Sequence record: ON528735
Origin: Shigella phage ESh25
DNA: 64,000 bases
Strand: one strand, 5' to 3'
The first letter of the stretch is position 1. The number at the start of each line of letters is the position of its first letter. Below, piece by piece: positions 9,620 through 51,043 of this stretch. A program made the translations under genes and the position numbers. The notes beneath the pieces are model-generated. The model was not told where the DNA came from and did no database searches. It saw only the letters and a list, made by a program, of their open reading frames with translations.

Positions 9620-9623
9620 CAAT

Positions 9624-9653
9624 GGGGACCTTTCGGTCCCCATATTTTTATTT
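9624..9653 (+). terminator. rho-independent terminator after gene 54
   Basis: 7-bp stem GGGGACC/GGTCCCC with 4-nt loop, followed by ATATTTTTATTT. Confidence 0.7.
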
Positions 9654-9938
9654 ACGGAATGAAATAAAAGCAGCAACTGAAGCAACAGAGGTTTCTTCAA
9701 TATAAACCTCAATTTTTACCGGAGCTTCTGACTCAAATTTACCTGTTACTACACCTTGGAAAATACTTTCAGTCTGTTCTGGCTTTGAAAAATTTTCAGA
9801 AGGAAAAATTCCGAACTTTTTATCGGTTCCGAAAATTTTAATAAATTCATCATAAACTGCTTCATTGAAAGCGTTATCAGCAGGAATAACGCCTTCAACT
9901 ACAAGTTCTTGACCTAAAAAGCGTAAAGAAGATTTCAT
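9648..9938 (-). CDS. hypothetical protein (96 aa) downstream of the alt genes
   Basis: ORF with GAGGA Shine-Dalgarno; early promoter cassette directly upstream. Confidence 0.6.
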   Translation of the reverse strand: MKSSLRFLGQELVVEGVIPADNAFNEAVYDEFIKIFGTDKKFGIFPSENFSKPEQTESIFQGVVTGKFESEAPVKIEVYIEETSVASVAAFISFRK

Positions 9939-9969
9939 TTTGTGTTCCTCATGTTATGTCAGTAAGATT

Positions 9970-9999
9970 ACTATAACACAACACGAGGGACTTGTAAAC
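9970..9999 (-). promoter_or_regulatory. sigma70-type early promoter (-35 GTTTAC, -10 TATAGT); part of a duplicated 54-bp cassette
   Basis: Minus strand GTTTAC, 17-18 nt, TATAG(T); 53/54 identical to 25270-25323. Confidence 0.55.
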
Positions 10000-12056
10000 T
10001 ACATTTTGAACTTTTTAGACATTCCGTTGATGTTAACCAAAGAAGCTAAGATTTGAGAAACTTCGCTTTCCTCTTCTTTTGATTCTTCTACAAGGAATTG
10101 ATTAAATCCAGCCATTGGACGAAATTCACCAGTTTCCATTAGATGGTCGCCATCATATACTGATTCTTCTAATTGTTCAGAAGGAGGAACGATTGTACCT
10201 TCGATTAGATACTTATTATAAGCAGTTTCTTTCATAAAGTAAGTACTTACTTTATTAATCTTCAGTAAAATTCCACGTGGTAGAATAACTTCAGCTTCTG
10301 ATGGAAATCCTGACAAATGACCTGGAACGATAACTTTAACTCGTTCAGCTCCTTTAATTACCATACCCACGCTAGTTTCTGCATCTTCATTAGCATATGT
10401 AGAATGACTACCCATATGCATCAAATCTTCTGCATCAACGGAACCTTCTCCTTCACCAGAAAATACTGCGCCGGAATCATCTAGAGCCATATAGTTTTTA
10501 CCATGCTCACCGAAGATATTTGGTTTAAGCGATGTGGATACGAAGTTCTTGAAATAGAACATTTTGTTTTCAATGTTATGACGCAAAGTTTTAAATGTAA
10601 CTTCTTGTCCACGGTAAAGTGTAGTTCCTGGAGGAAGAACTGAACCTTTAGCGAATGCAGAATCAAGCGTCTCGATGTGCTTAATAGCACGTTCCATATA
10701 TTCTTCACGGGTAGAATCCGGTTTACCTAAAAGGAACGAGTTCATTTCAACATATGAATCTGCGCAATAATCTTCAATTACATCAGACTCAGCCTGAGTC
10801 AATCCTTTTGGAGTTACTTCAGTGCTTGCATATTCATACGCCTGAGCAGCGGATTCATCAATTAATTTATAAATTCCATTCATTACAAATTGAATAATAG
10901 CTGTCTTTTCATCTGGCGTAGCTTTAGAACCTTTAACTAAATCATTGATAATTTTCTTAATAACATCAAAACTATTAGAAATATTAATATCAGCAAGATC
11001 GCTTAAAATTTTATCAGTTTTATAATCAAAGAATTCTTTATTCTTTAAATATTCTTGAGAACCTTGATATGTTATATCGCTCTGCAACTTGATAGATGGA
11101 TCACGTAAACGTGCATGGGCTAATGCAATATGATTTCGGAAGCTTTCTAGTTCATAATCGTTAGATTTAAAACGAGAAGCACTTCTCATACCACCGATAG
11201 CTCCTTTGCTGAAGTTTGAACCAATCTGAATAACGCCAGAGTTCATTGGTCCTTCTGCTTTATATACCGGAACTTTAGATTCAAACTCTTGATATTTCTT
11301 AGCAGCGAAGCTATCACCCTGAAGTGAAGCATCAACAGTAGAATATTGAGCTTGTGCTGCTAATCGACGACTAATTTTAGTTTTCTGAATAACAGCTTGA
11401 TCCGTACGCTTATCATTTTCTAAAGCAATAGAAGCAGCAACTGCGACAGCTTTAGGAACAGCATTACCTGTTTTAACGTCTACATAAACATCACCGACTT
11501 TCGATTCAACTTTTGTGAATAACTCAGTTGAAATAGGAGGTACACCTGGAATGTCTTCTAAATTGGCATTTTTACGGTAAACCATAATATATGCATATTT
11601 CTTATCATAGTCCCAGATTTCCTTTAAAAGAACATATCGACCTGCTCCTTTAGTACGTACTAAACGGTCAGCAATAACTTGCATTTGACGAGCAGCGCCG
11701 TTTGTTTTACTTTTTAGTACGCGGAATAGGCATGCATCAATTTTATACTGTTTCATTGTTTGAAGAGCAGTATCAAAAACCGCATTAATGACACCAATTG
11801 GATTTCCACCCAAGTTTTTAAGCTTAACTAACGATAATTTCTCGTTGACGCCTATCATTACGATATGCATCATTTTGTCGCCTGGCTTAACGTTTTTATT
11901 CGTATCACCGCCAGAGGTGTATGTACAAAATCGAAATCCAGGAAGAACGCTTTCTTCACCGGCTTGAATAGCAAAAATTTGAGGTATTTTATGCTTAGGA
12001 TTTAAGTTAACAACCGGCGCCGAAGCGCCGTCAAATAATTCTGTAATAAGTTCCAT
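9999..12056 (-). CDS. Alt-family ADP-ribosyltransferase paralogue (685 aa)
   Basis: C-terminal R-S-E ART triad (YRGQ, FVSTS, EAEVILPRG); N-terminal ~230 aa similar to the adjacent alt; divergent middle. Confidence 0.8.
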   Translation of the reverse strand: MELITELFDGASAPVVNLNPKHKIPQIFAIQAGEESVLPGFRFCTYTSGGDTNKNVKPGDKMMHIVMIGVNEKLSLVKLKNLGGNPIGVINAVFDTALQTMKQYKIDACLFRVLKSKTNGAARQMQVIADRLVRTKGAGRYVLLKEIWDYDKKYAYIMVYRKNANLEDIPGVPPISTELFTKVESKVGDVYVDVKTGNAVPKAVAVAASIALENDKRTDQAVIQKTKISRRLAAQAQYSTVDASLQGDSFAAKKYQEFESKVPVYKAEGPMNSGVIQIGSNFSKGAIGGMRSASRFKSNDYELESFRNHIALAHARLRDPSIKLQSDITYQGSQEYLKNKEFFDYKTDKILSDLADINISNSFDVIKKIINDLVKGSKATPDEKTAIIQFVMNGIYKLIDESAAQAYEYASTEVTPKGLTQAESDVIEDYCADSYVEMNSFLLGKPDSTREEYMERAIKHIETLDSAFAKGSVLPPGTTLYRGQEVTFKTLRHNIENKMFYFKNFVSTSLKPNIFGEHGKNYMALDDSGAVFSGEGEGSVDAEDLMHMGSHSTYANEDAETSVGMVIKGAERVKVIVPGHLSGFPSEAEVILPRGILLKINKVSTYFMKETAYNKYLIEGTIVPPSEQLEESVYDGDHLMETGEFRPMAGFNQFLVEESKEEESEVSQILASLVNINGMSKKFKM

Positions 12057-12059
12057 GAT

Positions 12060-14156
12060 TTATCCTTGAACGAACTTGTAAGGCATGTTTGTAATATCTA
12101 TGCAAGACGCAATAATTCCAAGAGATGATTCTACTTTCTGTTTAACGTTTGATGAAACAAATGATGCAAAGTCAACTCTGTCTTCTATTTCAATATCACC
12201 TGTCATTGCAACTACTTCACCGGTTTCCATTAAATGGTCTCCGTCATAGATTACCGATTCGGTGAGCTCTTCCGTGGTCATAACTTCAGCTTGAATGAGT
12301 TTTGTATTATTAGATGTTGTTCCGTCATTATTAGAAGCATCAGTTATTTTATTAACTTTGACCATCAATCCACGCGGTAGAATAACTTCAGCTTCTGTTG
12401 CTATTCCGAGACTTCCTGGATATACAACATTAACTTTATGAGCTCCATCAATTGCCCATCCTATTTGAACTTTAACGTATTCAGGATTTTCTTTATACGC
12501 TCTTATTTCGTTTGGATTAATAGTTATTCCTTCTTCATTTTTATCAACTGTTAATTCATTGCGAGCTTCTGGTTCTAAAAGACCAATACCAGCATGTGTG
12601 ATTCCAAAACGTCCAAAAATGATAGGAGTTAAAGAAGTAGATACAAAATTTCTGAAGTAGAACACTTTATTTTTAACTAACGCTTCATATATAGGAGCAG
12701 TCATACTTTGAGCACGATAAACTGTAATGCCTTCTGGTATACGGTCACCATTTTCAAAAGCTGAATCTAAGTTATTTATAGCAGATTCAATTTCTTTTTC
12801 ACTCATTACATCATATCGTTCTGGATTGTAGCGGCCTAAAAGAAGATTATTGATGTCAGTATATCCTGAACCGCAATATTCTCTAATGCCACGCTTTTGC
12901 GATGGAGTATATTTAGAACCATCACGGGCAATAGTAATATCAATCATTGGACCTGCACCAATTCCGGAAAAGCTATAAATCATTCGTTTGAGGAATTTAG
13001 TTTTTGCTGCGTTCCAAGAATTTTTAGTTATTTCTTCCCAGACTTCATCTGGCTGCCCTTTACGAGTTTTATTATGTTTATCAAGCCAATTATCTTTATA
13101 TTCTTCAAAGAATTGATTAACAGCTGCTGCGTATTTCTCTAAACATTTTATTGAAGTAGTTGGTTCATTTTTAATCGCATTAAGAATTACATCTTTAATT
13201 TTTTCAGAAACTTCATTAACCTCACTTTTTGAAAAGAATTTATAGTCATAGTGAAGTTCATCTGCAGTTCCTTCGGCAATAATTTTTGCTGCCTTAGTTT
13301 TAGAAGCTAATGAATTAATTCCAAGCTTCATTTCTTCTGCTTCGGGAATTAAAGGAGCGGTAGCAGGTTTATTAAAATTAGCTGCTGTAGATTCATACTT
13401 CTGGAATAATTCACTTTCAAATCTAGAAGATTCCAATGATTGACTTTGCGCAATTGCTCTACGGGAAATTTTAACTTTAACGATTACAGCTTGGTCAGAA
13501 CGTTTATCATTTTCTTGTGCAATAGATGCTGCAATTGCCTCATTTTTAGTTACTTGAGCTCCAGTATCTTTATTGATATAAACATCACCAACCTTCGATT
13601 CAACTTTAGTAAAGAGCTCGGTACTAATTTCAGGAACTCCTGGAATGTCTTCTAATGATACGTTTTTGCGATGTATAAGAATATATGCATACTTTTTATC
13701 GTAATCCCAGAGTTCCTTAAGAAGGACGTATCTGCCACCTGAACGACTACGGATAAGTCTATCAGCAATAACTTGAATTTGTCGAGCTTGGCCAGCAGTT
13801 TTAGACTTAAGAATACGAAGCATACAAGCATCAATTTTATATTGACGCATTGTTTGCATTGCAACAGTAAAAACTGAATTGATATAATTAATTGGGCTTG
13901 GACCAAGACCTTTTAATTTAGCAATTGAACCTTTAGCAGTTAATGTAAAAGGAACAATATGCATCATTTTATCGCCCATCTTTAAATCACGATTAGTATC
14001 ACCTCCAGATGTATAGGTACATAAACGAAAGCCTGGTTGTTCAATTGCATCATCAACATGAACTGAAAAAATTTGCGGTATTTTCTTCTTTGGATTTAAG
14101 TTTGTAATCGGAAGAGTAGTATCTTCGTCAAATAATTCTGTAATAAGTTCCATCAT
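12060..14156 (-). CDS. alt: Alt ADP-ribosyltransferase (injected internal head protein that modifies host RNA polymerase)
   Basis: 698 aa; R-S-E motifs YRAQ, FVSTS, EAEVILPRG; late promoter upstream; T4 position between 54 and 30. Confidence 0.85.
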   Translation of the reverse strand: MMELITELFDEDTTLPITNLNPKKKIPQIFSVHVDDAIEQPGFRLCTYTSGGDTNRDLKMGDKMMHIVPFTLTAKGSIAKLKGLGPSPINYINSVFTVAMQTMRQYKIDACMLRILKSKTAGQARQIQVIADRLIRSRSGGRYVLLKELWDYDKKYAYILIHRKNVSLEDIPGVPEISTELFTKVESKVGDVYINKDTGAQVTKNEAIAASIAQENDKRSDQAVIVKVKISRRAIAQSQSLESSRFESELFQKYESTAANFNKPATAPLIPEAEEMKLGINSLASKTKAAKIIAEGTADELHYDYKFFSKSEVNEVSEKIKDVILNAIKNEPTTSIKCLEKYAAAVNQFFEEYKDNWLDKHNKTRKGQPDEVWEEITKNSWNAAKTKFLKRMIYSFSGIGAGPMIDITIARDGSKYTPSQKRGIREYCGSGYTDINNLLLGRYNPERYDVMSEKEIESAINNLDSAFENGDRIPEGITVYRAQSMTAPIYEALVKNKVFYFRNFVSTSLTPIIFGRFGITHAGIGLLEPEARNELTVDKNEEGITINPNEIRAYKENPEYVKVQIGWAIDGAHKVNVVYPGSLGIATEAEVILPRGLMVKVNKITDASNNDGTTSNNTKLIQAEVMTTEELTESVIYDGDHLMETGEVVAMTGDIEIEDRVDFASFVSSNVKQKVESSLGIIASCIDITNMPYKFVQG

Positions 14157-14176
14157 AGCCTCTCTAGTGTTTATTC

Positions 14177-14184
14177 TATTTATA
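14177..14184 (-). promoter_or_regulatory. late promoter TATAAATA upstream of alt
   Basis: Minus strand TATAAATAG about 20 nt before the alt ATG; Alt is a late, packaged protein. Confidence 0.55.
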
Positions 14185-14189
14185 AAATT

Positions 14190-14206
14190 AAAGGCCCGAA
14201 GGCCTT
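14190..14206 (-). terminator. hairpin terminator (GGCC-UUCG-GGCC plus U-rich tail)
   Basis: Directly after the stop of the 62-aa ORF; followed on minus strand by TTTAATTTTAT. Confidence 0.5.
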
Positions 14207-14394
14207 TAGTAATCTAGTGGTAAGAGAGTACGATATATTTCAAACTTTGGTCCTTTTTCATAGGCATCAAATGTTTCTGTAAATTTATTATAAGCGTATG
14301 CATCTACAAATTCGAGAATGACTTGTGATACAGAAGTAGAAACATCTCCACCTTCTTTTTGAGCAATGACAATTGTTTCTAAGTAAGCTTTCAT
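14206..14394 (-). CDS. hypothetical protein (62 aa), alt.1 position
   Basis: Start overlaps the ligase stop. Confidence 0.55.
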   Translation of the reverse strand: MKAYLETIVIAQKEGGDVSTSVSQVILEFVDAYAYNKFTETFDAYEKGPKFEIYRTLLPLDY

Positions 14395-15854
14395 AAACCA
14401 GTTACCTCATGAAAATCACCAAATACATCCTCGAATGTATTAGCTTTAGTTTTATCTTCACGTAAACGAATCGCAATCGGAAGAAATAATTTAACGTAAT
14501 CAGTGCGGCCATCAGATTTTAACCAACCGTTGCATTCGCACTCTAGAATTTTTCCAATATAATAATTTTGGTTTTCCATAATGCGAGTACGGTCAAGTTC
14601 ATGTGATTTTACGCCGGCTTTGTCTTTTAAGCCTGAACCAGCATTTACCTTAATTTTTCCACACTCTGACTCAAGAATAAATCCACCCGCTTTAGTAGGG
14701 TCTTTACGGTGAGGATAAATTCCTACAATTTTTAAATCAACATCAATTACTTCTTTAAATTTATAAAGATTTTTTGAACGAGCATTTTCCCATAATCCAT
14801 CGATATTTTTGAGAATAATACCTTCAAGACCTTGGTCAATATACTTTTTATAAATTACCTTAGCTTCATCTAGGTTATTTACTACCTGGTTTTCAATTAA
14901 AATTACTTTATCATAACCTGATGTCATTTGTTCTAGTTTAGAAAAACGTACATCATATTTCAAACGAAATGCAGGAAGACCGTATATTTCTACCAACGGG
15001 ACATAATCCCAAACCTGAAACTTCATGCATTGAGCTTCTTTTTCAGAAATGGTTCCTTTTAAGGATTTATTGGCGATTCCATTAGAAGTAGTACGAGATT
15101 CCGCTACTTCGGCGAATTCTTTAGCTTTACTAATTTCAGGATAAGCATTAAAAAGAAAATCTAGGCCTTCTGGTTCCTTTTTAACTTGCTCATGGTATAC
15201 CAATTCGCCATCAATTAACACACCTTCTGGATGAATCTGGCGGGCTTCAGCAGTCATTTTGATTAACTCTTCCTTAAGAAGATCTAATCCTAGATATTCA
15301 TTACCAGCTCGTGATAAAAGACGAACATCATCTAATTCATCGCCTCGGACTTCAGCAAAACACCGGGCTCCATCTGCTTTTAACTGCGCAAAGGCTGGAA
15401 ACTTGATATTCTTACTAATGCCCTTTTCATCATAAGAACTTGCCAGCATTTGAGGTTGTTCAGGAATTAAACCTGGCCAAACTTTGTTTGCAATAGATAC
15501 TGAAGCACCGCATTCAAGGTCTCGCATCATCACTCGACGCAAAACTTCAACATCATCCTTTTTACCATCAGTGATATATCCAGTTAATTCCTCAATTGCA
15601 GCATTTCCAGTCAATTTCCGAGTAGCTAACGTGAATTCAATGAAATCAAGCATATCGGTAATGGTCAGCATTCCAAAACTCTGGGTAGCAATACCAGGTT
15701 TAGGCCATTTCTTGATATAATACTGTAACCCACGAGAATAAGTCAGACGATATACTCGTTTAAGCAATTCATTATCTTTATTCTTTTCAAGAATTGCTTG
15801 CTTCTGCTTAGTTGATCCAATAGATGCTATTTCATTCAGAATTTTAAGAATCAT
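14391..15854 (-). CDS. 30: ATP-dependent DNA ligase gp30
   Basis: 487 aa, same as T4 ligase; KADGAR adenylation motif. Confidence 0.95.
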   Translation of the reverse strand: MILKILNEIASIGSTKQKQAILEKNKDNELLKRVYRLTYSRGLQYYIKKWPKPGIATQSFGMLTITDMLDFIEFTLATRKLTGNAAIEELTGYITDGKKDDVEVLRRVMMRDLECGASVSIANKVWPGLIPEQPQMLASSYDEKGISKNIKFPAFAQLKADGARCFAEVRGDELDDVRLLSRAGNEYLGLDLLKEELIKMTAEARQIHPEGVLIDGELVYHEQVKKEPEGLDFLFNAYPEISKAKEFAEVAESRTTSNGIANKSLKGTISEKEAQCMKFQVWDYVPLVEIYGLPAFRLKYDVRFSKLEQMTSGYDKVILIENQVVNNLDEAKVIYKKYIDQGLEGIILKNIDGLWENARSKNLYKFKEVIDVDLKIVGIYPHRKDPTKAGGFILESECGKIKVNAGSGLKDKAGVKSHELDRTRIMENQNYYIGKILECECNGWLKSDGRTDYVKLFLPIAIRLREDKTKANTFEDVFGDFHEVTGL

Positions 15855-16120
15855 TGTTCATCCTTCAGAGTTTGATTTACAGCTCTATTATAAATCAATT
15901 CATCATTAAGCTCAGTTAAAGACCTATGATATGTAGTTCTAACTTTATTTCCTTGCATCCAGTGCTTGATATAAATGAAACCTTGCTCTACACATTTTTT
16001 AAAAATTCGTTCGTCTTTTTGAGCTCGGAATTCTGGATTGCATCTAAAGAATTGATTTACGTGACCGTAATCACGCGTAGTATTACCTTCATTTTCATAA
16101 ATAGTGTGAACGACAAACAT
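15851..16120 (-). CDS. hypothetical protein (89 aa), 30.1 position
   Basis: Overlapping start/stop with neighbours. Confidence 0.6.
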   Translation of the reverse strand: MFVVHTIYENEGNTTRDYGHVNQFFRCNPEFRAQKDERIFKKCVEQGFIYIKHWMQGNKVRTTYHRSLTELNDELIYNRAVNQTLKDEQ

Positions 16121-16959
16121 TAGAATGCTCCTTGGAAAATATTATCACCACAAGTAGGTCTATTATACAAATACTCTATGCCACCAGGTTTAATATAGTT
16201 CCATGTCTGAAACGGATGTGTCTGATATGGATGATATAGATGATTATAAGGATTAAACCCAGGAGTTCTCCAGGTAGTGTTCCAAGGAAAAGAATCATTT
16301 TTAATCATCTTTTCAATTACATCTTTTATAGCTTTTTCACTATCAAAACTTTCTTTATTTTCCTTCGGTGAAAAAAGTTTATTTTCTACATCATTCCATG
16401 TATAAACTCGCTGCGCAGTTTTTGGAATATTGTCACGCTCTCCTCGAGCCATCCAATAAACAGGAACATTTAATATTTCACTCGCATGATCGCAATGATG
16501 CGCGAGATCGTCAATATAACAAATTACGTTATATTTCTCTTTTGCCTTTTTGAACAACTCTTCTTTTGAAGAATCATGACCACACATCAATACTTCTGAG
16601 AAGGCACCAGGAAAAAGAGCATTCAAATTAAATTGACGATTTAGCAGAGCGTCAATAGAATCACCCAATGCTGTAACAGCTACAAAATTATAATCTTCTT
16701 TTAATTTGTTAATTACACACAGGGCATCTTTATACGGAGACAAATAGCGAATAAAATCTGAACGATTATACTTTTCGATTAATTTAACACCAAGTTCTTC
16801 ATCGCAATTAAAGAGCTTACCAGGAGAAATAAATTTTTCGTCCTGAATCATTTTTAAAATATGTTCCAACGGAAGATTATATTTTTGGGCAAAATAAGGA
16901 AGACCTGATTGCCAGCTTAAACATACACCATCAATATCAGTCAAAATAGTAGGCTTCAT
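16120..16959 (-). CDS. HAD-superfamily hydrolase-like protein (279 aa), 30.2 position
   Basis: N-terminal ILTDIDGV (HAD motif I) and later YIDDLAHH (motif IV-like). Confidence 0.6.
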   Translation of the reverse strand: MKPTILTDIDGVCLSWQSGLPYFAQKYNLPLEHILKMIQDEKFISPGKLFNCDEELGVKLIEKYNRSDFIRYLSPYKDALCVINKLKEDYNFVAVTALGDSIDALLNRQFNLNALFPGAFSEVLMCGHDSSKEELFKKAKEKYNVICYIDDLAHHCDHASEILNVPVYWMARGERDNIPKTAQRVYTWNDVENKLFSPKENKESFDSEKAIKDVIEKMIKNDSFPWNTTWRTPGFNPYNHLYHPYQTHPFQTWNYIKPGGIEYLYNRPTCGDNIFQGAF

Positions 16960-17420
16960 AGAGAGTCTCTTAATAGGTTTAACACATCAATAAATTCAGC
17001 TTCGGTTAGTATTGTATCATCTTTTGTTAGACTACTAGCCATGCTGTGCTTCAAAACTTTTCCTTTCGAGGCTTGTAATGCATCACGAAAGCCCTTGTTT
17101 TGAATCGCTGCCTCAAAATACGCATTTGTGTATAATTCTTTCCACGCTGTAGAGTATCTTGAAAACGGAACTCCGAGCCAGAAGAGGGTCCCACGGTCCT
17201 GAGCTCTAGCATAAGACCTTCCAGCTTGTTGGGCGGCAAGCCCGGATAACCCAAATACACGACGCTGCTGTTCAACATTTTTCACCTTACATCCTTGGAG
17301 GAATCCTTCGAGACCTCCAAATTGGATACCATCCATAACAAAAGGCCATTGGGCGAAATTACTTAATGCGCATGATGGCCATTTAAAATTGCTTCTAATC
17401 TCTAACTCAGACATTTTCAA
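16956..17420 (-). CDS. NADAR/YbiA-like domain protein (154 aa), 30.3 position
   Basis: ALSNFAQWPFVMDGIQF...LEGFLQGCK resembles the E. coli YbiA core DFSNFAAWPIKVDGKTW...SEHYFQAQK. Confidence 0.5.
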   Translation of the reverse strand: MKMSELEIRSNFKWPSCALSNFAQWPFVMDGIQFGGLEGFLQGCKVKNVEQQRRVFGLSGLAAQQAGRSYARAQDRGTLFWLGVPFSRYSTAWKELYTNAYFEAAIQNKGFRDALQASKGKVLKHSMASSLTKDDTILTEAEFIDVLNLLRDSL

Positions 17421-17613
17421 TACTTATAATTTCAACATCAGCCCAATGACCATAGCAAGGAAGACGAAATTCAACTGGCCAGTTAGGGTCCTTTTCTAAT
17501 ATAATAGACTGAACTTGTGGCTCTTCATATTCATCGGTATACGGACCTTTATACGTTACTTTATATGTGACCTTAATATACTGAATTCCAAAAATCTTAT
17601 TAATTATATTCAT
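17407..17613 (-). CDS. hypothetical protein (68 aa)
   Basis: ORF in operon-like array with overlapping ends. Confidence 0.5.
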   Translation of the reverse strand: MNIINKIFGIQYIKVTYKVTYKGPYTDEYEEPQVQSIILEKDPNWPVEFRLPCYGHWADVEIISIENV

Positions 17614-17807
17614 ACTAATTCCTTTAATCCGTAAATAGGAGATAATTCATCGCCCATACGAAGGTCTTCATTTCCATCTACCCAGGAAACAATATAAGCC
17701 TCTTTTATTTGAATACCACTCCATTTAAATGGAGGTAGAACCTTAGAAATTAATCCAGGTATACCAACTCCCTTTAATTCAACAGTTTGACCTAAAAAGA
17801 ATTTCAT
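17610..17807 (-). CDS. hypothetical protein (65 aa)
   Basis: ATGA-type overlap with neighbours. Confidence 0.5.
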   Translation of the reverse strand: MKFFLGQTVELKGVGIPGLISKVLPPFKWSGIQIKEAYIVSWVDGNEDLRMGDELSPIYGLKELV

Positions 17808-18145
17808 TAGAACCTCATCTGAAAACCGTGCGATTTAACATTACCGCCACCAATATCAGAGATATTAATTTCGCGCGCAATTGAAGGGTCAATGTCAATT
17901 TCACGATTGAGTTTAGTGATAGCTAAAGTATCGCGCCCATTTACAGTACGGAACTCTAAAGGGCAGACTACATTAACGTAGTTTTTAATCGATTCACTGG
18001 TAGGTTGCAAATGAGCAGGAAGGTCTTTAGGCGCCTTTGAGAAAACAACTTCACAGAAATTTTTGCGGGTATCAAAATAAGTAGTCATAAACATAATATT
18101 TTCCTCAGTAAGGGGCCGAAGCCCCTGTTTTATTTTAAATATCAA
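17807..18145 (-). CDS. hypothetical protein (112 aa; possibly starts at internal Met, 18094)
   Basis: GC-rich UUCG hairpin at 18107-18122 lies inside the track N-terminus, suggesting the later start with GAGGAAAA Shine-Dalgarno. Confidence 0.5.
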   Translation of the reverse strand: MIFKIKQGLRPLTEENIMFMTTYFDTRKNFCEVVFSKAPKDLPAHLQPTSESIKNYVNVVCPLEFRTVNGRDTLAITKLNREIDIDPSIAREINISDIGGGNVKSHGFQMRF

Positions 18146-18500
18146 ATTCGTTAAGAACTACATCAAAGATTGCTTCAAGATGCTCAGGTTTAGCTCTGTT
18201 ACTCAGAATATGACGAATCCAAGTTTTAACCAAAAGCTTGCGATTATCACCATTCCAGCAAGGATGAGTCCCTAAATCGCGTTGACGAAAATCATCATCC
18301 AGAGCGATTTTGAAGTTTGAACCTTCCATTGTGATTGAAACCGTGATGCCATTTTCAAATCGCATATAAACGTAGTTAGGAGTCATATACTGTTCAATTT
18401 CGCATACTGATCCATTTTGATGTTTCCAAAGGCAGATAGTATCAATAGAACCTGCAATACCATTAGAAACATATTTACGTTCAAAGTTGATGTAGTTCAT
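18135..18500 (-). CDS. hypothetical protein (121 aa)
   Basis: GGAGAA Shine-Dalgarno; early promoter upstream. Confidence 0.55.
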   Translation of the reverse strand: MNYINFERKYVSNGIAGSIDTICLWKHQNGSVCEIEQYMTPNYVYMRFENGITVSITMEGSNFKIALDDDFRQRDLGTHPCWNGDNRKLLVKTWIRHILSNRAKPEHLEAIFDVVLNEFDI

Positions 18501-18537
18501 TTTTATTCTCCGAGATGTTTAATTGCGGTACAGGTAT

Positions 18538-18566
18538 ATAATATCATATCCTGTACCAAAGTAAAC
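18538..18566 (-). promoter_or_regulatory. early promoter with embedded inverted repeat
   Basis: GTTTAC, 17 nt, TATTAT; inverted repeat GGTACAGG/CCTGTACC brackets the -10. Confidence 0.5.
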
Positions 18567-18568
18567 AA

Positions 18569-18901
18569 TTATTTTACTACTTTCCAGTGCTTCATGTCAA
18601 GTTTACCAACTTTTTTCATCTTCTCAATTAAGCGTTCGGCACGTTGGCGAGCTGTAACATAATACCATTCGCCTAATTCATTTTGTTCAATTTTTCCAAC
18701 GATTACTGTATTCAATTCATAAATCCAACCAGTAAAGAAATTATGAACTTGAATTGTAAAGGTGAAATCTGTTCCCATACCTTCTGTTGTTTCTACTTCA
18801 ATAATATCACCTTCAACTGCCATTAAGAACCACATAGTTTCATCATATTTACCATTGAAGCATTTAGTTTTAACTGTAGCGTTCAGATTAATCGTTTTCA
18901 T
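18569..18901 (-). CDS. hypothetical protein (110 aa)
   Basis: AAGGAG Shine-Dalgarno; own promoter. Confidence 0.55.
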   Translation of the reverse strand: MKTINLNATVKTKCFNGKYDETMWFLMAVEGDIIEVETTEGMGTDFTFTIQVHNFFTGWIYELNTVIVGKIEQNELGEWYYVTARQRAERLIEKMKKVGKLDMKHWKVVK

Positions 18902-18926
18902 TTTATTCTCCTTTGTTTGTGTAAGA

Positions 18927-18956
18927 TAATACTATCACAAAGGAACCATACTGTAA
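18927..18956 (-). promoter_or_regulatory. early promoter with inverted repeat that overlaps the downstream Shine-Dalgarno
   Basis: GTTTAC, 18 nt, TAGTAT; inverted repeat CCTTTGT/ACAAAGG, the 3' arm overlapping AAGGAG. Confidence 0.5.
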
Positions 18957-18977
18957 ACAACTTTATGCAATCTTTGG

Positions 18978-19006
18978 AAAATAAAAAAGGACTCCCGAAG
19001 GAGTCC
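18978..19006 (-). terminator. rho-independent terminator
   Basis: Perfect 7-bp stem GGACTCC with UUCG loop, followed on minus strand by TTTTTTATTTT. Confidence 0.75.
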
Positions 19007-19011
19007 TCAAC

Positions 19012-19188
19012 TTATGCTTTCTGCTTACCAAAACGAGAAGCATCATCTCGAAGAACCGCACGTGCTCGGCGCATGATCTTCTCAACAGTTTGATTGATAC
19101 GAGAGTTCGACCCACGCTTGTAGCCAGCGCGTTTAGAATCACCAACTTTCTTTTCAACTGCTTTCTTTGCTTTAGCTTGTTTTGCCAT
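19012..19188 (-). CDS. small lysine/arginine-rich basic protein (58 aa from MAKQ; track gives a 72-aa extension)
   Basis: Highly basic composition; start ambiguous between 19188 and 19230. Confidence 0.5.
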   Translation of the reverse strand: MAKQAKAKKAVEKKVGDSKRAGYKRGSNSRINQTVEKIMRRARAVLRDDASRFGKQKA

Positions 19189-19478
19189 TATAAATTCTCT
19201 TTTAAATGAAAATGCAGGACTTATTGGCATTGCCTGCGCAAGCCCTCAAGGGGAACATAGGTTTTTGGATATTTAACGACCAGGATAACCATAAACCTCG
19301 TCAACATACCACCAAGACTTACACAGATAACACTTTTCTGACGCATGATAGTAACATTCAAGAGGTACACCGTAAAACTGCCGGGGTCTTAAAACTATAA
19401 TGATTCGCAAATCATTAATCAGACAGTTCGACGGCTCCTCGATTTTAGCTCACACTAAGGCAGTGAATCTCCAATAAA

Positions 19479-19727
19479 TTACTTCAGTGTTACCACAAAG
19501 TGACGAACTGCTTTTCGTGCAGCAGAAGCCAGAGGCTTAGCATACTTAAGTTCATCTTTTTCCTGAAGCTCAGCAGCTAATGCAGTTTGAGCAGGATTCA
19601 GATGTTTGAAATAACGCAGAATTTCAAGAGCTTCGGCTTCAACATCAATAGATGCGCCATAGTTTTCGTGACCATTATTCCATGCGTTTCGTTGCAGTTC
19701 AAGAGCGTGTTGTAATTGTTTAATCAT
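19479..19727 (-). CDS. rIII: rIII lysis-inhibition accessory protein
   Basis: 82 aa, same as T4 rIII; position between genes 31 and 30. Confidence 0.8.
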   Translation of the reverse strand: MIKQLQHALELQRNAWNNGHENYGASIDVEAEALEILRYFKHLNPAQTALAAELQEKDELKYAKPLASAARKAVRHFVVTLK

Positions 19728-19874
19728 TTAAAAATTCTCGTTAGAGATTAAAACTCGGTAGTCACGTTCTTCTGAATTTCATCTTCTTTCGACAGATCTC
19801 TCAGTTGTAGACTACCACATAGAATTGTTCGGTTAACTTATTATTCCGACACCCAATTCATATTATTATTTATA

Positions 19875-20210
19875 TCACTTATAAAGACACGGAATAGCTT
19901 TATAGTGACAGGTAACGAATTTTTGTTTAATTTCTTTTGGCTGCTTAAGACCCAGAGCTACAAAAGGATGCGGAACATTTCGAATTTGACCAACTGGAAG
20001 AGAAGTCAAATCACCAACTTCGCAGAAACCTTCAGGAACATCAGGACCGACAGAGTGAACTACACACAGTTCAGGAACTTCACCTTGAACACGTTTACCG
20101 ATAATAAGTCCTGATTCTGTAACTTCTTCATCACCGGCTTGTGCGGGTTCAGAAACTAAAATAACATATTCACCGACAGCACGAATTGGTAGCTGTTGTA
20201 CTTCAGACAT
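19875..20210 (-). CDS. 31: gp31 co-chaperonin (GroES analogue for capsid folding)
   Basis: 111 aa, same as T4 gp31; middle-promoter-like element upstream. Confidence 0.85.
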
Positions 20211-20240
20211 CGTTTTTCCTTTTTGTTAACAGATGAATTA

Positions 20241-20267
20241 ATAATAACAAATAATTCTTAAAGCATT
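20241..20267 (-). promoter_or_regulatory. middle-promoter-like element for gene 31
   Basis: Minus strand AATGCTTTA (perfect MotA box), 12 nt, TATTAT. Confidence 0.5.
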
Positions 20268-20575
20268 TATTTACCAATAAATTGGAGTAAATGCTCAACT
20301 TTCATACCATTAACAGAAATCAATTTGTTAATAGAAAAACCTCGCCACTCGCCAAGCTCAACATCAAATACTGGAATCATATCAGTAGATTCTTTCCGAG
20401 TAGATTCAGTCAATTTACCGGTTTGCATTGTTGGCATAAAGTCTGCATCACGAGTACCTTTCATGGTACGAATAGTACCATCAGACTTTTCAAAAACCAC
20501 GTTTGAAATACCCATGGACAATTTAGTTTTCAAAATTTCACGAATTGCTACTTTCTGCTCAGTTGTCAGTTTCAT
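20267..20575 (-). CDS. hypothetical protein (102 aa), 31.1 position
   Basis: ORF contiguous with neighbours. Confidence 0.55.
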   Translation of the reverse strand: MKLTTEQKVAIREILKTKLSMGISNVVFEKSDGTIRTMKGTRDADFMPTMQTGKLTESTRKESTDMIPVFDVELGEWRGFSINKLISVNGMKVEHLLQFIGK

Positions 20576-20812
20576 TTATTTACCTATTACAGTTTTAATA
20601 TGGGTTGTTCCACGTTCTTTAAGAGTGGAAAGCAATTTTTGGCATTTTTCTAAATCAGATTTCCAACTATATGGTCTATCAATACTAGTCCAATCAGTTT
20701 TATAATACTGTTTCCATTTAGAGAAAAAATATTTCTTATACTCTACAGCAAACGAGATGTTCTCATTAGAATAAGAACTAATTGCTGTGAGTTGTACCAA
20801 ACGAAATTTCAT
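20576..20812 (-). CDS. hypothetical protein (78 aa), 31.2 position
   Basis: Start overlaps the cd stop. Confidence 0.55.
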   Translation of the reverse strand: MKFRLVQLTAISSYSNENISFAVEYKKYFFSKWKQYYKTDWTSIDRPYSWKSDLEKCQKLLSTLKERGTTHIKTVIGK

Positions 20813-21393
20813 TATTCACCACAGAATTCGTTGATATTTTCCCAGTTTAACTTATTCAAGTTTTTCTTAGGAACATTAAACACTTCAATACCTGCATTTC
20901 GCAGAATATCATCCCAGCCAGGTTTATTTTTATCATATGTTTCGCAATAAACCAGCTTTTTAATACCAGATTGAGCTATCGCTTTTGCACAATCTGGACA
21001 AGGAGAAAGTGTTACATACATAGTAGCACCTTCAATAGAAGAGCCATTTCGTGCAGCAAACAAAATCGCATTTAGTTCAGCATGAATTTCATTTTTAGAC
21101 GACCATTCAGAGTGAGCGCTCCGGTGTTCTTTTGCCAAGACAAAGCGATCAGTTGAACCAAATGATACGCATTCAGGCTTATGGCCTTGAATGATAGTAT
21201 GTTTAGGCTTATTCAACAACCAACCTTGCTCAGCAGCATAATCACAACAGTTCACACCACCAGCAGGTGAACCATTATATCCGGTAGAAATAATACGTCC
21301 ATTCTTTTCAATTACTGCTCCTACCTTCCAGGAGCAACATTTTGATTCCTGGGATACTAAATATGCAATTTGAAGTACTGTACTCGCTTTCAT
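20812..21393 (-). CDS. cd: dCMP deaminase
   Basis: 193 aa, same as T4 Cd; zinc-binding HAE and PCPDC motifs. Confidence 0.9.
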   Translation of the reverse strand: MKASTVLQIAYLVSQESKCCSWKVGAVIEKNGRIISTGYNGSPAGGVNCCDYAAEQGWLLNKPKHTIIQGHKPECVSFGSTDRFVLAKEHRSAHSEWSSKNEIHAELNAILFAARNGSSIEGATMYVTLSPCPDCAKAIAQSGIKKLVYCETYDKNKPGWDDILRNAGIEVFNVPKKNLNKLNWENINEFCGE

Positions 21394-21728
21394 TTCATAA
21401 TCACCAGATAAGCAGATTTAGCAGTTTCAACACGATAAATTTCGTGACGAAGTTTAGTTATACTTTTAATAACAGAACTAATTATATTCTGCCCATCTTT
21501 AAAGCGGTTTTTCTTATCAATAAAAATTGCACCAGCCATCTTTTTGTGAAGCTCAACTGGATACTTCGTCACAATAATAGCATCATACACAGAAGGATGA
21601 ATACTATTTACTAGAGTGTCATTCATTAAAGTTATTCTAATGAACTGTGCTGTTTCAGAGTCAAGCGCTCTATGATCGCCAGTATCATTTTCAAGACAAT
21701 TATCAATTATATCAGTTAAATTCATCAT
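21390..21728 (-). CDS. hypothetical protein (112 aa), cd.1 position
   Basis: ATGA overlap. Confidence 0.5.
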   Translation of the reverse strand: MMNLTDIIDNCLENDTGDHRALDSETAQFIRITLMNDTLVNSIHPSVYDAIIVTKYPVELHKKMAGAIFIDKKNRFKDGQNIISSVIKSITKLRHEIYRVETAKSAYLVIMK

Positions 21729-21964
21729 AGTACGCCATACACCCTTTGTGCTTCAACTAATCCATCAAAATCCAGTTTAAGATGCGATATTTGATCGCCA
21801 TCACCTGGATTCACAATTACTAATACTGAACGAGGAGTTTCGGTAATAACACGAACCGATGTTTCAGGAAATCGTTCAGAAACCTTATTTACCAATTCCT
21901 GTGCAAATAGCTTAACTTTTTCTTGGAATTCTTTAACAGTAATCGGTTTTTCACTTAGCAGCAT
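21725..21964 (-). CDS. hypothetical protein (79 aa), cd.2 position
   Basis: GAGGAAAA Shine-Dalgarno; own promoter. Confidence 0.5.
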   Translation of the reverse strand: MLLSEKPITVKEFQEKVKLFAQELVNKVSERFPETSVRVITETPRSVLVIVNPGDGDQISHLKLDFDGLVEAQRVYGVL

Positions 21965-21993
21965 TTTGTTTTCCTCATTTGTTTGGTAGAGCT

Positions 21994-22023
21994 ATAATAT
22001 CACAACTCTACCGTAAAGTAAAC
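21994..22023 (-). promoter_or_regulatory. early promoter with inverted repeat
   Basis: GTTTAC, 18 nt, TATTAT; inverted repeat GGTAGAG/CTCTACC brackets the -10. Confidence 0.5.
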
Positions 22024-22025
22024 TA

Positions 22026-22331
22026 TTAAATTGCTTTGAATTCTGCTGTCTGCGATTCAAAGCGAATGTCGCCTTTGATAACTAACTCAGCATCAAGACC
22101 GAATACGACAATGATATGCGCGGAACCTGGATACAGCGTAATGGCAACAGAATCCACTTGGTCTGGAAGCAAAGTGTTCAATACATGAGTCACTTGAGCA
22201 TGGATTCGAAGTTCGGCTGCGTTATCAAGCTTTTCAAACATGTTATTAGCGATAATTTGACTAAACACTACTTCTACGATTTTAGAATAAGTCGGAAACA
22301 TATTTACCTCACATAATTTTCTTCGAGCCAA
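22026..22331 (-). CDS. hypothetical protein (101 aa; likely starts at internal Met, about 22301)
   Basis: ORF in the cd-pseT array. Confidence 0.5.
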   Translation of the reverse strand: MARRKLCEVNMFPTYSKIVEVVFSQIIANNMFEKLDNAAELRIHAQVTHVLNTLLPDQVDSVAITLYPGSAHIIVVFGLDAELVIKGDIRFESQTAEFKAI

Positions 22332-22504
22332 TCAATAACATCCAACGCATTATCAAAAGTTGAACCATCTACTTTGTCTTCTGTTTCATAATCAAGAACA
22401 TCTAAACCTACTCTTCCATCAACAATAGGCCATAAACAAAATAGATATTTCTTTTCTTTTTCAATTTTATCACAAAGACGATAAATCTTTTCTATGTTAT
22501 TCAT
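22304..22504 (-). CDS. hypothetical protein (66 aa)
   Basis: ORF in the cd-pseT array. Confidence 0.45.
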   Translation of the reverse strand: MNNIEKIYRLCDKIEKEKKYLFCLWPIVDGRVGLDVLDYETEDKVDGSTFDNALDVIDWLEENYVR

Positions 22505-22690
22505 AAGTTTTCCATGGTAAAGGCAGTTTAGTTTTCTTTACTGTTAGTTCAACATCAGGATTCTTTTCTCTTAATTTAAGGCATTCCTCCCAAGCTCTGA
22601 TTTCACTAGTGAATACACAAAATTGCCCATTACTAGTACCGACTAAACCACTATTTACAATAATAGCCCAAGTTTCATGATGCCATGCCA

Positions 22691-22691
<1 letters not shown>
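22497..22691 (-). CDS. hypothetical protein (64 aa)
   Basis: Start overlaps the pseT stop. Confidence 0.45.
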
Positions 22692-23891
<1,200 letters not shown>

Positions 23892-23895
<4 letters not shown>

Positions 23896-24122
23896 TTATT
23901 TTTCTCAACTAATGATTGAATATAATCATGCAGGTCTTTAGATGCTTTACCCCACTTATTTTGATATTCATTTTTGAGATTAGCACGGGATTGAGCTAAT
24001 AAAACATCATTAGTTGGAGGTAAAGATTCTAACCGCTGAATCTGGCGTCCATAAATCATTGCAGCCATCTCGGATTCATAAATCAATCCTTTGAGATGTT
24101 CAAATTGATGCCATGAAATCAT
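23892..24122 (-). CDS. hypothetical protein (76 aa)
   Basis: Overlapping ends with neighbours. Confidence 0.5.
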
Positions 24123-24418
24123 TTACATTTATCCTCTTTTAACTCTTGACGATAATAACATATCATAGTTTTTTGGTCATGTACATATCGTTTTACATCA
24201 TTAAGCCAAATACGAAATTCCTGGGAATCTTCAAATGGCATACCGACCCAAGCTTTACCATCAATAACTTTAACTTGCCAAGATAGTTTAGCTTCATCAT
24301 ATGACTTTATCTGTACAGGCCAATTAGGATGAACTGTTTCTTTCTTTACTTCTAGAGGCTTTGTCGAACAACCAGCTAGAAGACCGATAGATAATATTAC
24401 TGCTGATAGTCTAATCAT
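24119..24418 (-). CDS. outer-membrane lipoprotein, o-spanin (Rz1 equivalent)
   Basis: Signal peptide with lipobox LAGC; immediately follows and overlaps the i-spanin candidate. Confidence 0.65.
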   Translation of the reverse strand: MIRLSAVILSIGLLAGCSTKPLEVKKETVHPNWPVQIKSYDEAKLSWQVKVIDGKAWVGMPFEDSQEFRIWLNDVKRYVHDQKTMICYYRQELKEDKCK

Positions 24419-24768
24419 TTAGAAAGGTCCTGGATGTCTTCTGCGAACTTGTTGAAGGAGTTGTTGATTTGTTTTTCAACCAATCCTGGCTTACGAGCCA
24501 CCACATCCGCCTTCTTTGCATCTTTGCGCAGTTTTTCATTTTCACGCTCAATATCAGCAATCGCCTCACGATTTTTATTATTCATCGCATCAATATAATT
24601 ATACTGAATTCGCAAATTATTTAATGCTAAGGCGTTTTCATTGGCCGTTTTTGTAATTTCTACAACAGACGTTTCTAATCTTTCTACCTTATTTTTTAAA
24701 ATAATAGATGTTCCGCCAAATGCTATTACAAGTAATAGCAATCCAGCTGTAAAATTACTTACATGCAT
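24415..24768 (-). CDS. inner-membrane i-spanin (Rz equivalent)
   Basis: N-terminal transmembrane helix (GLLLLVIAFGG) followed by charged coiled-coil; T4 pseT.3/pseT.2 are the known spanins at this position. Confidence 0.65.
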   Translation of the reverse strand: MHVSNFTAGLLLLVIAFGGTSIILKNKVERLETSVVEITKTANENALALNNLRIQYNYIDAMNNKNREAIADIERENEKLRKDAKKADVVARKPGLVEKQINNSFNKFAEDIQDLSK

Positions 24769-25265
24769 AAAGTTTTAATAACCTCTATAATATCGTCTTG
24801 AGAAAGACCGTTAATTAAAATATGATGTTCAGCCGGAGATTTAGAAATTTTAAAGCACGCCGCAACATCTTCTGCCATATCCGATGCGCTACGATTTGGA
24901 TTACTAATTCCAAGACGATGCTTTCCTGTCAAAGGATTAACGATGATATAGCATTTGCAGCTATTGATATGAACATTAGGTTGAGTCTGATTAATAAACA
25001 CTTCACAATCATACTTAGCGAGTTGATTTTCTAAAAAGACTTTCATCTCCTCAACCGCATCAGGAAGCATATCACGGGCTTGCTCAAGATGACGATTTCG
25101 ATATTCTTTAATGGTCGTTTTCCGCTTGACTTGCTTAGCTAAATCTTTCTTAAGATCGGTGATATATCCAACTCGACGATTTCCTTTGAATACAGAAATC
25201 CCATCTGTAGTATCACCGTATGCTTCAACGACCATTTCAGTAGTAATAAGCTGCAAATCCATCAT
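24759..25265 (-). CDS. alc: Alc, terminator of host (cytosine-DNA) transcription
   Basis: 168 aa (T4 Alc about 167 aa); position between pseT and rnlA. Confidence 0.8.
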   Translation of the reverse strand: MMDLQLITTEMVVEAYGDTTDGISVFKGNRRVGYITDLKKDLAKQVKRKTTIKEYRNRHLEQARDMLPDAVEEMKVFLENQLAKYDCEVFINQTQPNVHINSCKCYIIVNPLTGKHRLGISNPNRSASDMAEDVAACFKISKSPAEHHILINGLSQDDIIEVIKTLCM

Positions 25266-25293
25266 AAAGTCCTCATGTTATGTCAGTAAGACT

Positions 25294-25323
25294 ACTATAA
25301 CACAACACGAGGGACTTGTAAAC
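25294..25323 (-). promoter_or_regulatory. early promoter for alc; second copy of the duplicated 54-bp cassette
   Basis: GTTTAC, 18 nt, TATAGT; 53/54 identical to 9946-9999. Confidence 0.55.
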
Positions 25324-25326
25324 AGC

Positions 25327-26914
<1,588 letters not shown>

Positions 26915-26922
26915 AATAAAAT

Positions 26923-26936
26923 GGGCCTTGCGGCCC
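26923..26936 (-). terminator. hairpin (GGGCC-GCAA-GGCCC) between nrdB and denA, terminator-like
   Basis: Stem-loop followed on minus strand by ATTTTATT, then the denA ATG. Confidence 0.45.
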
Positions 26937-26941
26937 ACTCC

Positions 26942-28120: not shown

Positions 28121-28171
28121 AAATTTTCCACTTAGTTAATAGTTGGTGACTCGTCCGTGAGTCAAATTATA

Positions 28172-34083: not shown

Positions 34084-34377
34084 TTATTGTTCAATCAGTC
34101 CCATGTAAAATTCTGCGTCTTCAGAATCCATGCCATCGCAATATTCATTAGCCATAAAGCGGGTAAGGTCTTCAAGAGGACCTTCAATGACAATAGAAAA
34201 ATTGCAATAATTGGGATCATCATGAATACTTGTGATACTAAGTTCAGGATAACGATTACGAATAATCTCTTCAATATATTCAAAATCAACGATGTCAATA
34301 TCAACTTTAGCCATATTATTTTCCTCTTTGATCATCAGCAGTATTGCCGATAGTTGTATAGTACCATGGAAGGACAA
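34084..34377 (-). CDS. hypothetical protein (97 aa), frd.3 position
   Basis: AGAGGAAAA Shine-Dalgarno; promoter upstream. Confidence 0.55.
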
Positions 34378-34387
34378 GGATGTAAAC
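34358..34387 (-). promoter_or_regulatory. early promoter; member of a repeated cassette family
   Basis: GTTTAC, 18 nt, TACTAT; the 38 bp at 34382-34420 is 37/38 identical to 51068-51106. Confidence 0.5.
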
Positions 34388-34408
34388 AGTTTTGTGAAAA
34401 AATTTTTG

Positions 34409-34437
34409 AAATAAAAAAGGGGACCTCTAGGGTCCCC
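34409..34437 (-). terminator. rho-independent terminator after gene 32
   Basis: Stem GGGGACC/GGTCCCC followed on minus strand by TTTTTTATTT. Confidence 0.7.
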
Positions 34438-34459
34438 AATTAATTAGTAATATAATCTA

Positions 34460-50661: not shown

Positions 50662-50698
50662 TTTAATCTCCGTTTCAGTTCATTTATTTGATAGGTCT

Positions 50699-50727
50699 AT
50701 AGTATCATGTTTAAAGCAGAAGTAAAC
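50699..50727 (-). promoter_or_regulatory. early promoter for motA
   Basis: GTTTAC, 17 nt, TACTAT; leader shares the 23-nt CTATCAAATAAATGAACTGAAAC with the neighbouring cassette at 51010-51035. Confidence 0.55.
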
Positions 50728-50994: not shown

Positions 50995-51043
50995 TTTTTG
51001 TATCTCCGGGTTGTTTGTTTCAGTTCATTTATTTGATAGTTGT

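Follow-up and report, generated by a model that had tools for sequence, protein, structure and literature searches.

A 54-bp early promoter and leader cassette shared by alt.-3 and alc in Shigella phage ESh25, and a hairpin predicted to hide its Shine-Dalgarno sequence

Why would a phage carry almost the same 54 bp in front of two unrelated genes about 15 kb apart? The question is raised by a stretch of 64,000 nucleotides (nt) from Shigella phage ESh25 (sequence record ON528735), hereafter the window, in which one copy of the repeat precedes alt.-3 and the other precedes alc. In brief, each copy, here called the cassette, consists of a -35 box, a spacer, a -10 box and a short leader that ends in a Shine-Dalgarno (SD) sequence. 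We suggest, with moderate confidence and from modelling of the RNA, that the SD is masked on RNA reading through from upstream, and that alc and alt.-3 would be translated essentially only from the RNA of their own promoter. The two copies are as follows.

9946-9999, minus strand: cassette copy 1, at the alt.-3 site, with the -35 box GTTTAC at 9994-9999, the -10 box TATAGT at 9970-9975, preceded by TG, and the SD GAGGA at 9946-9950.
25270-25323, minus strand: cassette copy 2, at the alc site, with the -35 box at 25318-25323, the -10 box at 25294-25299 and the SD at 25270-25274.

A repeat search within the window showed that the copies are identical at 53/54 positions (98%). On the minus strand both read GTTTAC AAGTCCCTCGTGTTGTGT TATAGT A(A or G)TCTTACTGACATAACAT GAGGA, and the sole mismatch, A versus G at 9969 / 25293, lies inside the loop of the hairpin described below. 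A first-pass annotation of the window had reported a near-identical 54-bp repeat with these two promoter boxes and this SD; self-comparison of the window agrees, and places all the elements on the minus strand. The window holds 15 GTTTAC-type early promoters on the minus strand. When all of these sites were taken in one 54-nt register, their pairwise identity had a mean of 24.4 (sd 5.9) per 54 nt and the runner-up pair matched at 38/54, so the cassette pair goes beyond what the early-promoter consensus yields. It is the only near-identical early-promoter pair in the window. With up to 3 mismatches allowed, the window holds exactly two matches to a 23-nt core of the cassette, where 100 shuffles gave an expectation of 0.00. 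The similarity ends sharply: the 60-nt flanks on either side match between the sites at 21-22/60 positions, which is random.

Tequatrovirus phages of the wV7/RB51 type match the surrounding region at 97% identity. A search with the 54-mer found it at 997 places in about 499 phage records, T4 included, with two copies per genome and always before alt.-3 and alc; a third copy was absent from every genome in this search. This pattern of two copies at the same two sites gives no sign of ongoing mobility, and does not support the earlier likening to mobile cassettes in this respect. The cassette sequence became public with the T4 genome; the T4 record AF158101 carries no annotation at either cassette position.

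A consensus scan describes both promoters as TTTACA-17-TATAGT with a TG extended -10 box and 10/12 hexamer matches. They are tied for the top score in their 5-kb scanned regions, and share their register with the 13 other GTTTAC promoters of the window. The first-pass view of a promoter joined to a 5' untranslated region and an SD therefore stands, and the promoter is of the strong sigma-70 early type. Each cassette occupies the entire 60-61 bp gap that separates the upstream stop codon from the next ATG. The -35 G of copy 1 is the final base of the upstream TAG stop, and copy 2 starts 3 nt past the TAA stop of rnlA. The SD lies 7 nt ahead of the ATG at alt.-3 and at the alc start annotated in T4.

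The spacer and the leader are complementary, and are predicted to form the following hairpins.

9951-9992, minus strand: RNA hairpin of copy 1, with the 5' arm CCUCGUGUUGUGUU at 9979-9992 and the 3' arm GACAUAACAUGAGG at 9951-9964.
25273-25318, minus strand: RNA hairpin of copy 2, with the same core and a base lengthened by AAGUCC/GGACUU pairing.

The fold of the 51-nt core has 14 bp, a 2-nt bulge, an apical stem AGUA/UACU of 4 bp and a 4-nt loop. Its 5' arm CCUCGUGUUGUGUU is the promoter spacer (18 nt in copy 1, where it holds the anti-SD arm) with the -10 box on its top, and the leader supplies its 3' arm GACAUAACAUGAGG, in which the SD lies. For read-through RNA, the core folds at -22.0 kcal/mol in copy 1 (z -6.1 against shuffles) and at -23.2 kcal/mol in copy 2 (z -5.4), and in the predicted folds of both copies 4/4 SD bases are paired with the promoter region. 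We place the transcription start, from the position of the boxes, about 7 nt after the -10 box, that is probably around the A at 9967 in copy 1. This start falls within the apical stem, so the cassette's own transcript would lack the 5' arm, and the fold of an RNA beginning there gave 0 to -1.4 kcal/mol. The antisense strand is 5-10 kcal/mol less stable than the sense RNA because three of the pairs are G.U, which implicates the sense RNA and disfavours a DNA cruciform. A search of Rfam returned no family at gathering score anywhere in the 64 kb.

Based on these observations, we propose that the cassette may work as a self-contained early expression unit made up of a sigma-70 promoter, a short leader with the SD, and an anti-SD in the promoter spacer. 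On RNA entering from the second alt paralog or from rnlA, the spacer arm would pair with the leader over 14+4 bp and bury the SD, and alt.-3 or alc would be poorly translated from such RNA. Polymerase starting at the cassette promoter would begin inside the apical stem, and its RNA would keep the 3' arm alone, with the SD free. The gene would in this way be translated essentially only while its own early promoter fires, though middle and late transcripts still cross it. Selection on promoter and hairpin, plus occasional gene conversion, would keep the two copies near-identical.

Sequence variation was followed within the genus and across genera. The within-genus set comprised 13 Tequatrovirus genomes with 26 copies and 13 distinct sequences, in which 98.7% of the hairpin pair cells hold standard pairs. 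One pair varies between C-G, U.G and U-A, the last step turning the SD from GAGGA into AAGGA, and another switches between G.U and A-U. Three variants break a pair, each in one genome only.

Roughly 1,100 records encode Alc; for the cross-genus set, the gap between rnlA and alc was taken from ten genera. An anti-SD arm at spacer positions 2-10 was found in Tequatrovirus, Dhakavirus, Gelderlandvirus, Karamvirus, Moonvirus, Bragavirus and Winklervirus, and in a Klebsiella T4-like phage, counted as the eighth lineage, whose record states no genus. The arms vary in sequence and still pair, namely UCUCCUCAU/AUGAGGAGA, UCUCCGUUU/AAACGGAGA, UCUCCAUUUGGUUGUGU/ACACUAACCAAAUGGAGA, AUCCUCAUCAG/CUGAUGAGGAU, AACCUCUCAUUUUU/GAAAAUGAGAGGUU and UCCUCAUUUCGUUGUG/CACACUAACGAAAUGAGGA. 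In an alignment-free swap test, the promoter half of each lineage was joined to the leader half of every lineage; cognate combinations folded at a mean of -20.3 kcal/mol versus -11.1 for non-cognate ones, and the natural assignment of promoters to leaders was the single best of 5040 permutations. Pairs were also counted over spacer positions 1-12 and the 12 opposing leader bases, with shuffle and slide controls. In this trimmed alignment 86.5% of the cells were paired versus 60.4 +/- 3.7% after shuffling (0/500), both sides had changed in 10/12 pairs (8/500 shuffles as good), and the covariation score was 0.741 versus 0.263 for shuffles (0/500). Sliding the partners by 1-3 columns lowered pairing to 35-49%. 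In IMG/VR only five T4-like loci per gene were available, too few for a population analysis. Judged from its co-varying arms, the alc cassette is old, with the same design in at least eight genera.

The alt.-3 cassette appears to have a different history. The outgroups used here were JS98 (Dhakavirus), SQ17 and LF82-2 (both Mosigvirus), Melville (Gelderlandvirus) and VR25 (Gaprivervirus). In all five an alt.-3 promoter occupies the same position, and its -35 box adjoins the stop codon. In these four genera, however, the promoter is of another type, with a mini-hairpin inside the spacer. Folds of the alt.-3 site from JS98, SQ17 and Melville have 0/4 SD bases paired with the promoter, and the spacer of VR25, by sequence inspection with no fold, has no anti-SD motif. 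We infer that the SD-pairing type is ancestral at alc and derived at alt.-3. Most likely, the alt.-3 promoter had its interior replaced by that of the alc cassette in the stem lineage of Tequatrovirus. The motifs GTTTACA and ATGAGGA bound the repeat and are common to the older cassettes at both sites, so they could serve as exchange points, and the exchange was probably at these shared ends.

Later exchange between the copies was assessed in the 13 genomes. The two copies of one genome differ by a mean of 1.69 versus 2.04 between genomes, which is not significant (permutation p = 0.066). Three of the four alc variants recur at alt.-3, identical in position and base change (hypergeometric P ~7e-4, on the assumption that all base changes are equally likely). 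Occasional ectopic gene conversion would fit these shared variants; alternatively, they could stem from recurrent mutation. The repeat had also been put forward as a recombination substrate; the three polymorphisms common to both sites lend this indirect support. The approximately 15 kb between the direct repeats includes what we take to be gene 30 (DNA ligase) and gene 31. A reciprocal crossover would remove these 15 kb together with both genes, so from general knowledge of T4 only gene conversion would be viable.

The flanks were compared for rearrangements mediated by the cassette, a check that the first-pass annotation had recommended. One flanking event was found, in T4, where a 1,699-bp deletion between the 9-bp direct repeats CTAAAAAGT cost the phage its second alt paralog and left an alt.-1/alt.-2 remnant. 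In the window these repeats lie on the minus strand, at 11709-11717 and 10010-10018; 19 bp separate the right end from the cassette downstream. Since its junctions are these repeats, 19 bp from the cassette, the deletion was not mediated by the cassette. After the deletion, the T4 alt.-2 open reading frame (ORF) continues into the cassette, with its stop within the -10 box.

The features that bear on RNA reaching the cassettes from upstream are the following.

14177-14184, minus strand: late-promoter motif TATAAATA, just upstream of alt.
12060-14156, minus strand: alt proper, the ORF upstream of the second alt paralog.
9999-12056, minus strand: second alt paralog, full-length, 685 aa, upstream of copy 1.
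9648-9938, minus strand: alt.-3, 96 aa, phrog_1739, no assigned function, downstream of copy 1.
9622-9643, no strand assigned: bidirectional terminator-like hairpin that closes the alt.-3 unit against gene 54.
25327-26487, minus strand: rnlA (RNA ligase 1 / gene 63), upstream of copy 2; its start codon is uncertain.
24759-25265, minus strand: alc, an inhibitor of the host's transcription, 167 aa when started at the second ATG (25262), downstream of copy 2.

The cassettes thus precede a 96-aa ORF and alc, as first annotated, but the ORF does not come directly after alt; the gene upstream of it is the second alt paralog. The motif TATAAATA is the likely source of a late RNA that would cross both alt genes into copy 1. 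A terminator scan found no terminator-like site between either TATAAATA or the second alt paralog and copy 1, so with TATAAATA upstream of alt, late RNA for the Alt proteins, which are packaged, should cross the alt.-3 cassette. The same scan found none in 23500-28500, the region of rnlA and alc. In T4, denA-rnlA-alc is preceded by the middle promoters PI-TevIII, PnrdB and PnrdA, all of them mapped (PMC2988021). On this basis read-through RNA would be expected at either cassette. Time-resolved transcriptome and proteome data of T4 (PMC9697503) class both the RNA and the protein of alt.-3 and alc as early, the RNA of alt.-1 and alt.-2 as middle and alt as late; for rnlA the RNA is early and the protein late. 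As alt.-3 RNA is early and the genes just upstream are middle or late in T4, an early start site is needed between alt.-2 and alt.-3. We found no mapped 5' end for such a start.

The neighbouring genes gave some further observations. The tandem full-length alt ADP-ribosyltransferase paralogs of the window (9999-12056 and 12060-14156, minus strand) compare with three alt copies in Dhakavirus C6, two in JS98, one in Mosigvirus, one in Gaprivervirus, and one plus the remnant in T4. The hairpin at 9622-9643, between the convergent alt.-3 and 54, has 9 bp with 6 G-C pairs and T-runs on both strands. The GTG of rnlA at 26487 is merely the first ATG/GTG/TTG after a stop in a mechanical ORF list; T4 and RB51 annotate a 374-aa rnlA, and the equivalent start would be an ATG near window position 26451. 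The nrdB gene at 26942-28120 is uninterrupted, hence the phage does not have the nrdB group I intron carried by T4.

Two other roles for the leader were considered and dropped. In both copies a mini-ORF of 4-5 codons (9936-9953 and 25260-25277, minus strand) starts at an AUG immediately 5' of the SD (CAUGAGGA) and terminates in a UGA overlapping the gene's own AUG. A functional upstream mini-ORF from CAUGAGGA was dropped; it is without an SD of its own and the motif is common at early ribosome binding sites (RBSs). As AUGAGGA recurs at many early RBSs, in the window and in other genera, the AUG is probably plain RBS consensus. A RegB/RegA target was dropped as well, as the Tequatrovirus SD is without GGAG and there is no A/U-rich RegA-like operator.

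Several points weigh against masking of the SD on read-through RNA as we propose it. Pairing of the 5' arm starts just 5-10 nt after the upstream stop codon, so a terminating ribosome could melt the anti-SD pairs, and masking may be partial or give way to coupling. What insulation would gain is harder to see at alc than at alt.-3, as rnlA, the gene upstream of alc, is itself early in RNA. The design is not universal: the alc cassette of Mosigvirus is of a different type, with a mini-hairpin within the spacer and the SD free, the alc hairpin of Kanagawavirus stops just short of the SD, and in Gaprivervirus VR25 alc is without a promoter of its own. From these exceptions the device is dispensable. 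An alignment of the ten alc-site cassettes with MAFFT, followed by RNAalifold, gave no consensus structure, because SD offsets vary slightly and put the 3' arms out of register. The cross-genus alignment that did show pairing was anchored on predicted pair 6 and hence leans towards pairing, and the within-genus pairing test is weak, as variation is sparse and 76/500 shuffles equal the observed pairing. Percent identity gives no donor for the exchange, at 55-69% versus outgroup alc cassettes and 60-65% versus outgroup alt.-3 cassettes, so the direction of copying was read from architecture; like that direction, the start site, the read-through RNA and the translational effect are inferred. In VR25 we also observed a small extra ORF, gp243, with its own stem-loop and promoter, between rnlA and alc; this is an insertion of the cassette type.

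The same stem-loop could act on transcription. The papers on promoter-early-stem-loop (PeSL) cassettes define a stem-loop between or overlapping the promoter boxes (PMC2839356), and one stem-loop of RB49 is reported to lower expression of a downstream lacZ in vivo (PMC4122927). In several other early promoters of the window (P18566, P33386) a stem-loop likewise spans the -10 box and ends before the SD. The cassette could accordingly terminate or attenuate transcription entering from the upstream gene, which the promoter would then restart, with any translational effect incidental. We judge this unlikely. There is no U-tract after the hairpin at either copy, the downstream sequence being A-rich in all genera, and the terminator scan flags neither cassette, yet flags real terminators nearby. 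Termination also leaves unexplained why the SD is included in the 3' arm in 7/8 hairpin-bearing lineages, and why anti-SD and SD shift register jointly (CCUC/GAGG versus CUCC/GGAG). Translational masking explains the cassette better. A ribosome finishing the upstream gene might instead melt the hairpin, and the output of alc and alt.-3 would then follow that of rnlA and the alt paralog. The geometry would allow such coupling, since in every genus the upstream stop abuts or overlaps the -35 box, and its 5-10 nt distance from the 5' arm is within reach of a terminating ribosome. We nevertheless consider it rather unlikely, because the proteins of T4 run opposite to a coupled output, Alt.-3 and Alc being early and Alt and RnlA late. 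The tight spacing of stop and promoter is also found at cassettes without SD pairing (Mosigvirus, the outgroup alt.-3 sites), and may thus reflect only genome compaction.

It is quite improbable that the 18-bp stem is a processing or stability element, such as an RNase III-type site or a protective 3' hairpin for the upstream message. The stem is long, stable on the sense RNA and placed exactly at the end of the upstream cistron, which speaks for this reading. In JS98, Melville and the Klebsiella phage, however, it is just 9-11 bp, too short for RNase III, with SD pairing kept; there is no Rfam match, and the constant involvement of the SD would go unexplained. Very improbable, in our view, is an ordinary promoter duplicated by recent copying or gene conversion, with an inverted repeat that is accidental or acts at the level of DNA, as a cruciform or protein site. 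The polymorphisms common to both sites do speak of sequence exchange, and in a genus about 3-6% divergent a high identity at each site is unremarkable. But such a promoter would not account for a spacer arm that covaries with the SD leader across eight genera, the spacers of the other early promoters in the window are unrelated, and G.U pairs that favour sense over antisense RNA are not expected of a DNA cruciform.

The pair studied here belongs to a broader population of promoter and stem-loop cassettes, as the PeSL authors described. Several further early promoters of the window have a stem-loop across the -10 box that ends short of the SD. The promoter P54211 (~54145-54211, minus strand), before a 37-aa ORF, has a 15-bp spacer/SD helix, CUGUUCCUCCGUGGU...ACUACGGAGGAACAG, at -25.4 kcal/mol, and P18958 (~18895-18958, minus strand), before a 110-aa ORF, has the spacer/SD pairing design too. 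The window also contains two repeat pairs of the PeSL kind, each a G+C-rich terminator hairpin followed by an early promoter: 34349-34446 versus 51035-51132 (78% over 98 nt) and 50672-50707 versus 51017-51052 (92% over 36 nt). In public records, the annotated alc start of LF82-2 overlaps the rnlA stop, and that of alt.-3 in VR25 is inside the promoter. These starts appear to be extended into the promoter, the real ones being the SD-preceded ATGs about 60 nt downstream, and several public start codons can be flagged on this account.

We speculate, and on balance would rather doubt than assert, that T4-like phages carry portable, self-insulating early cassettes that keep the gene behind them silent on all read-through RNA. 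If so, many PeSL stem-loops read as terminators would be translational insulators, and the transplant from alc to alt.-3 would have moved transcriptional and translational timing together between genes. T4 is the reference system for temporal control, and its known cases of a hairpin plus an internal promoter are all late genes; here, if the alc and alt.-3 cassettes work as proposed, the same principle would run the opposite way and limit immediate-early protein to the first minutes of infection. The information would sit in the promoter spacer, normally taken as unconstrained, which would explain why spacer and leader are conserved, and some PeSL stem-loops without terminator features would gain a function. 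At about 54 bp, the cassette would also be a compact design for promoter-autonomous expression in synthetic operons.

How does the cassette compare with known systems? In the literature searched we found no account of the two promoters as one cassette, of a covarying anti-SD spacer or of a secondary gain at alt.-3, although an earlier mention is possible; nor was a paper on a hairpin at the alc promoter found in the searchable literature, which is thin on older T4 papers. The nearest promoters are those of the T4 Pe class (Hinton 2010, PMC2988021), with which the cassette shares GTTTAC, the TG-extended -10 box, A/T-rich upstream DNA, a place before immediate-early genes and early RNA in T4. 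Ordinary Pe promoters have only the consensus boxes in common (mean 24/54), whereas the cassette pair shares spacer and leader too, parts that would carry a second function.

The PeSL cassettes of T4-type phages (Arbiol et al. 2010, PMC2839356; Comeau et al. 2014, PMC4122927) were the likeness suggested in the first-pass annotation, and it holds in part. As in PeSLs, a sigma-70-like early promoter, a stem-loop with G-T pairs across the -10 box and an SD at the 3' end form one intergenic unit, the copies are repeated and could act as recombination partners, and an indel lies beside one of them. Copy pattern and mobility do not fit: in about 499 genomes there are two copies only, at two fixed sites, unlike the many clustered in hyperplastic regions around genes that vary among close relatives, and the neighbouring indel stems from unrelated 9-bp repeats. 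The cassette is also without a U-tract, and its stem-loop spans the promoter, whereas that of the PST/T4 pair, with the promoter TTTACW-N17-TAYWAT, is described as just upstream of the promoter (PMC2839356). Unlike the PeSLs as described, the cassette includes the SD in its 3' arm; the words translation and ribosome are absent from PMC2839356.

In mechanism, the cassette resembles the RBS-sequestering hairpins with an internal promoter at T4 e, soc, 25, 26, I-TevI/II/III and segB, and at Aeh1 mobE (PMC2988022). There the SD is hidden on the long RNA and the short RNA of the internal promoter cannot fold, as predicted here, and the timing of the gene is set by its own promoter, as we propose here. 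In each described case the gene is late, its promoter is late or middle, and the polycistronic RNA that carries it is early or middle (PMC2988022). In the cassette, by contrast, the internal promoter is early, the 5' arm is the promoter spacer, and the RNAs that would be silenced are the later ones. The class of mechanism is thus already known. With alc and alt.-3 as early genes behind an early internal promoter, the cassette is a variant of the RBS-sequestering class rather than a member of it, an early-gene version with the spacer as an arm and the temporal logic inverted.

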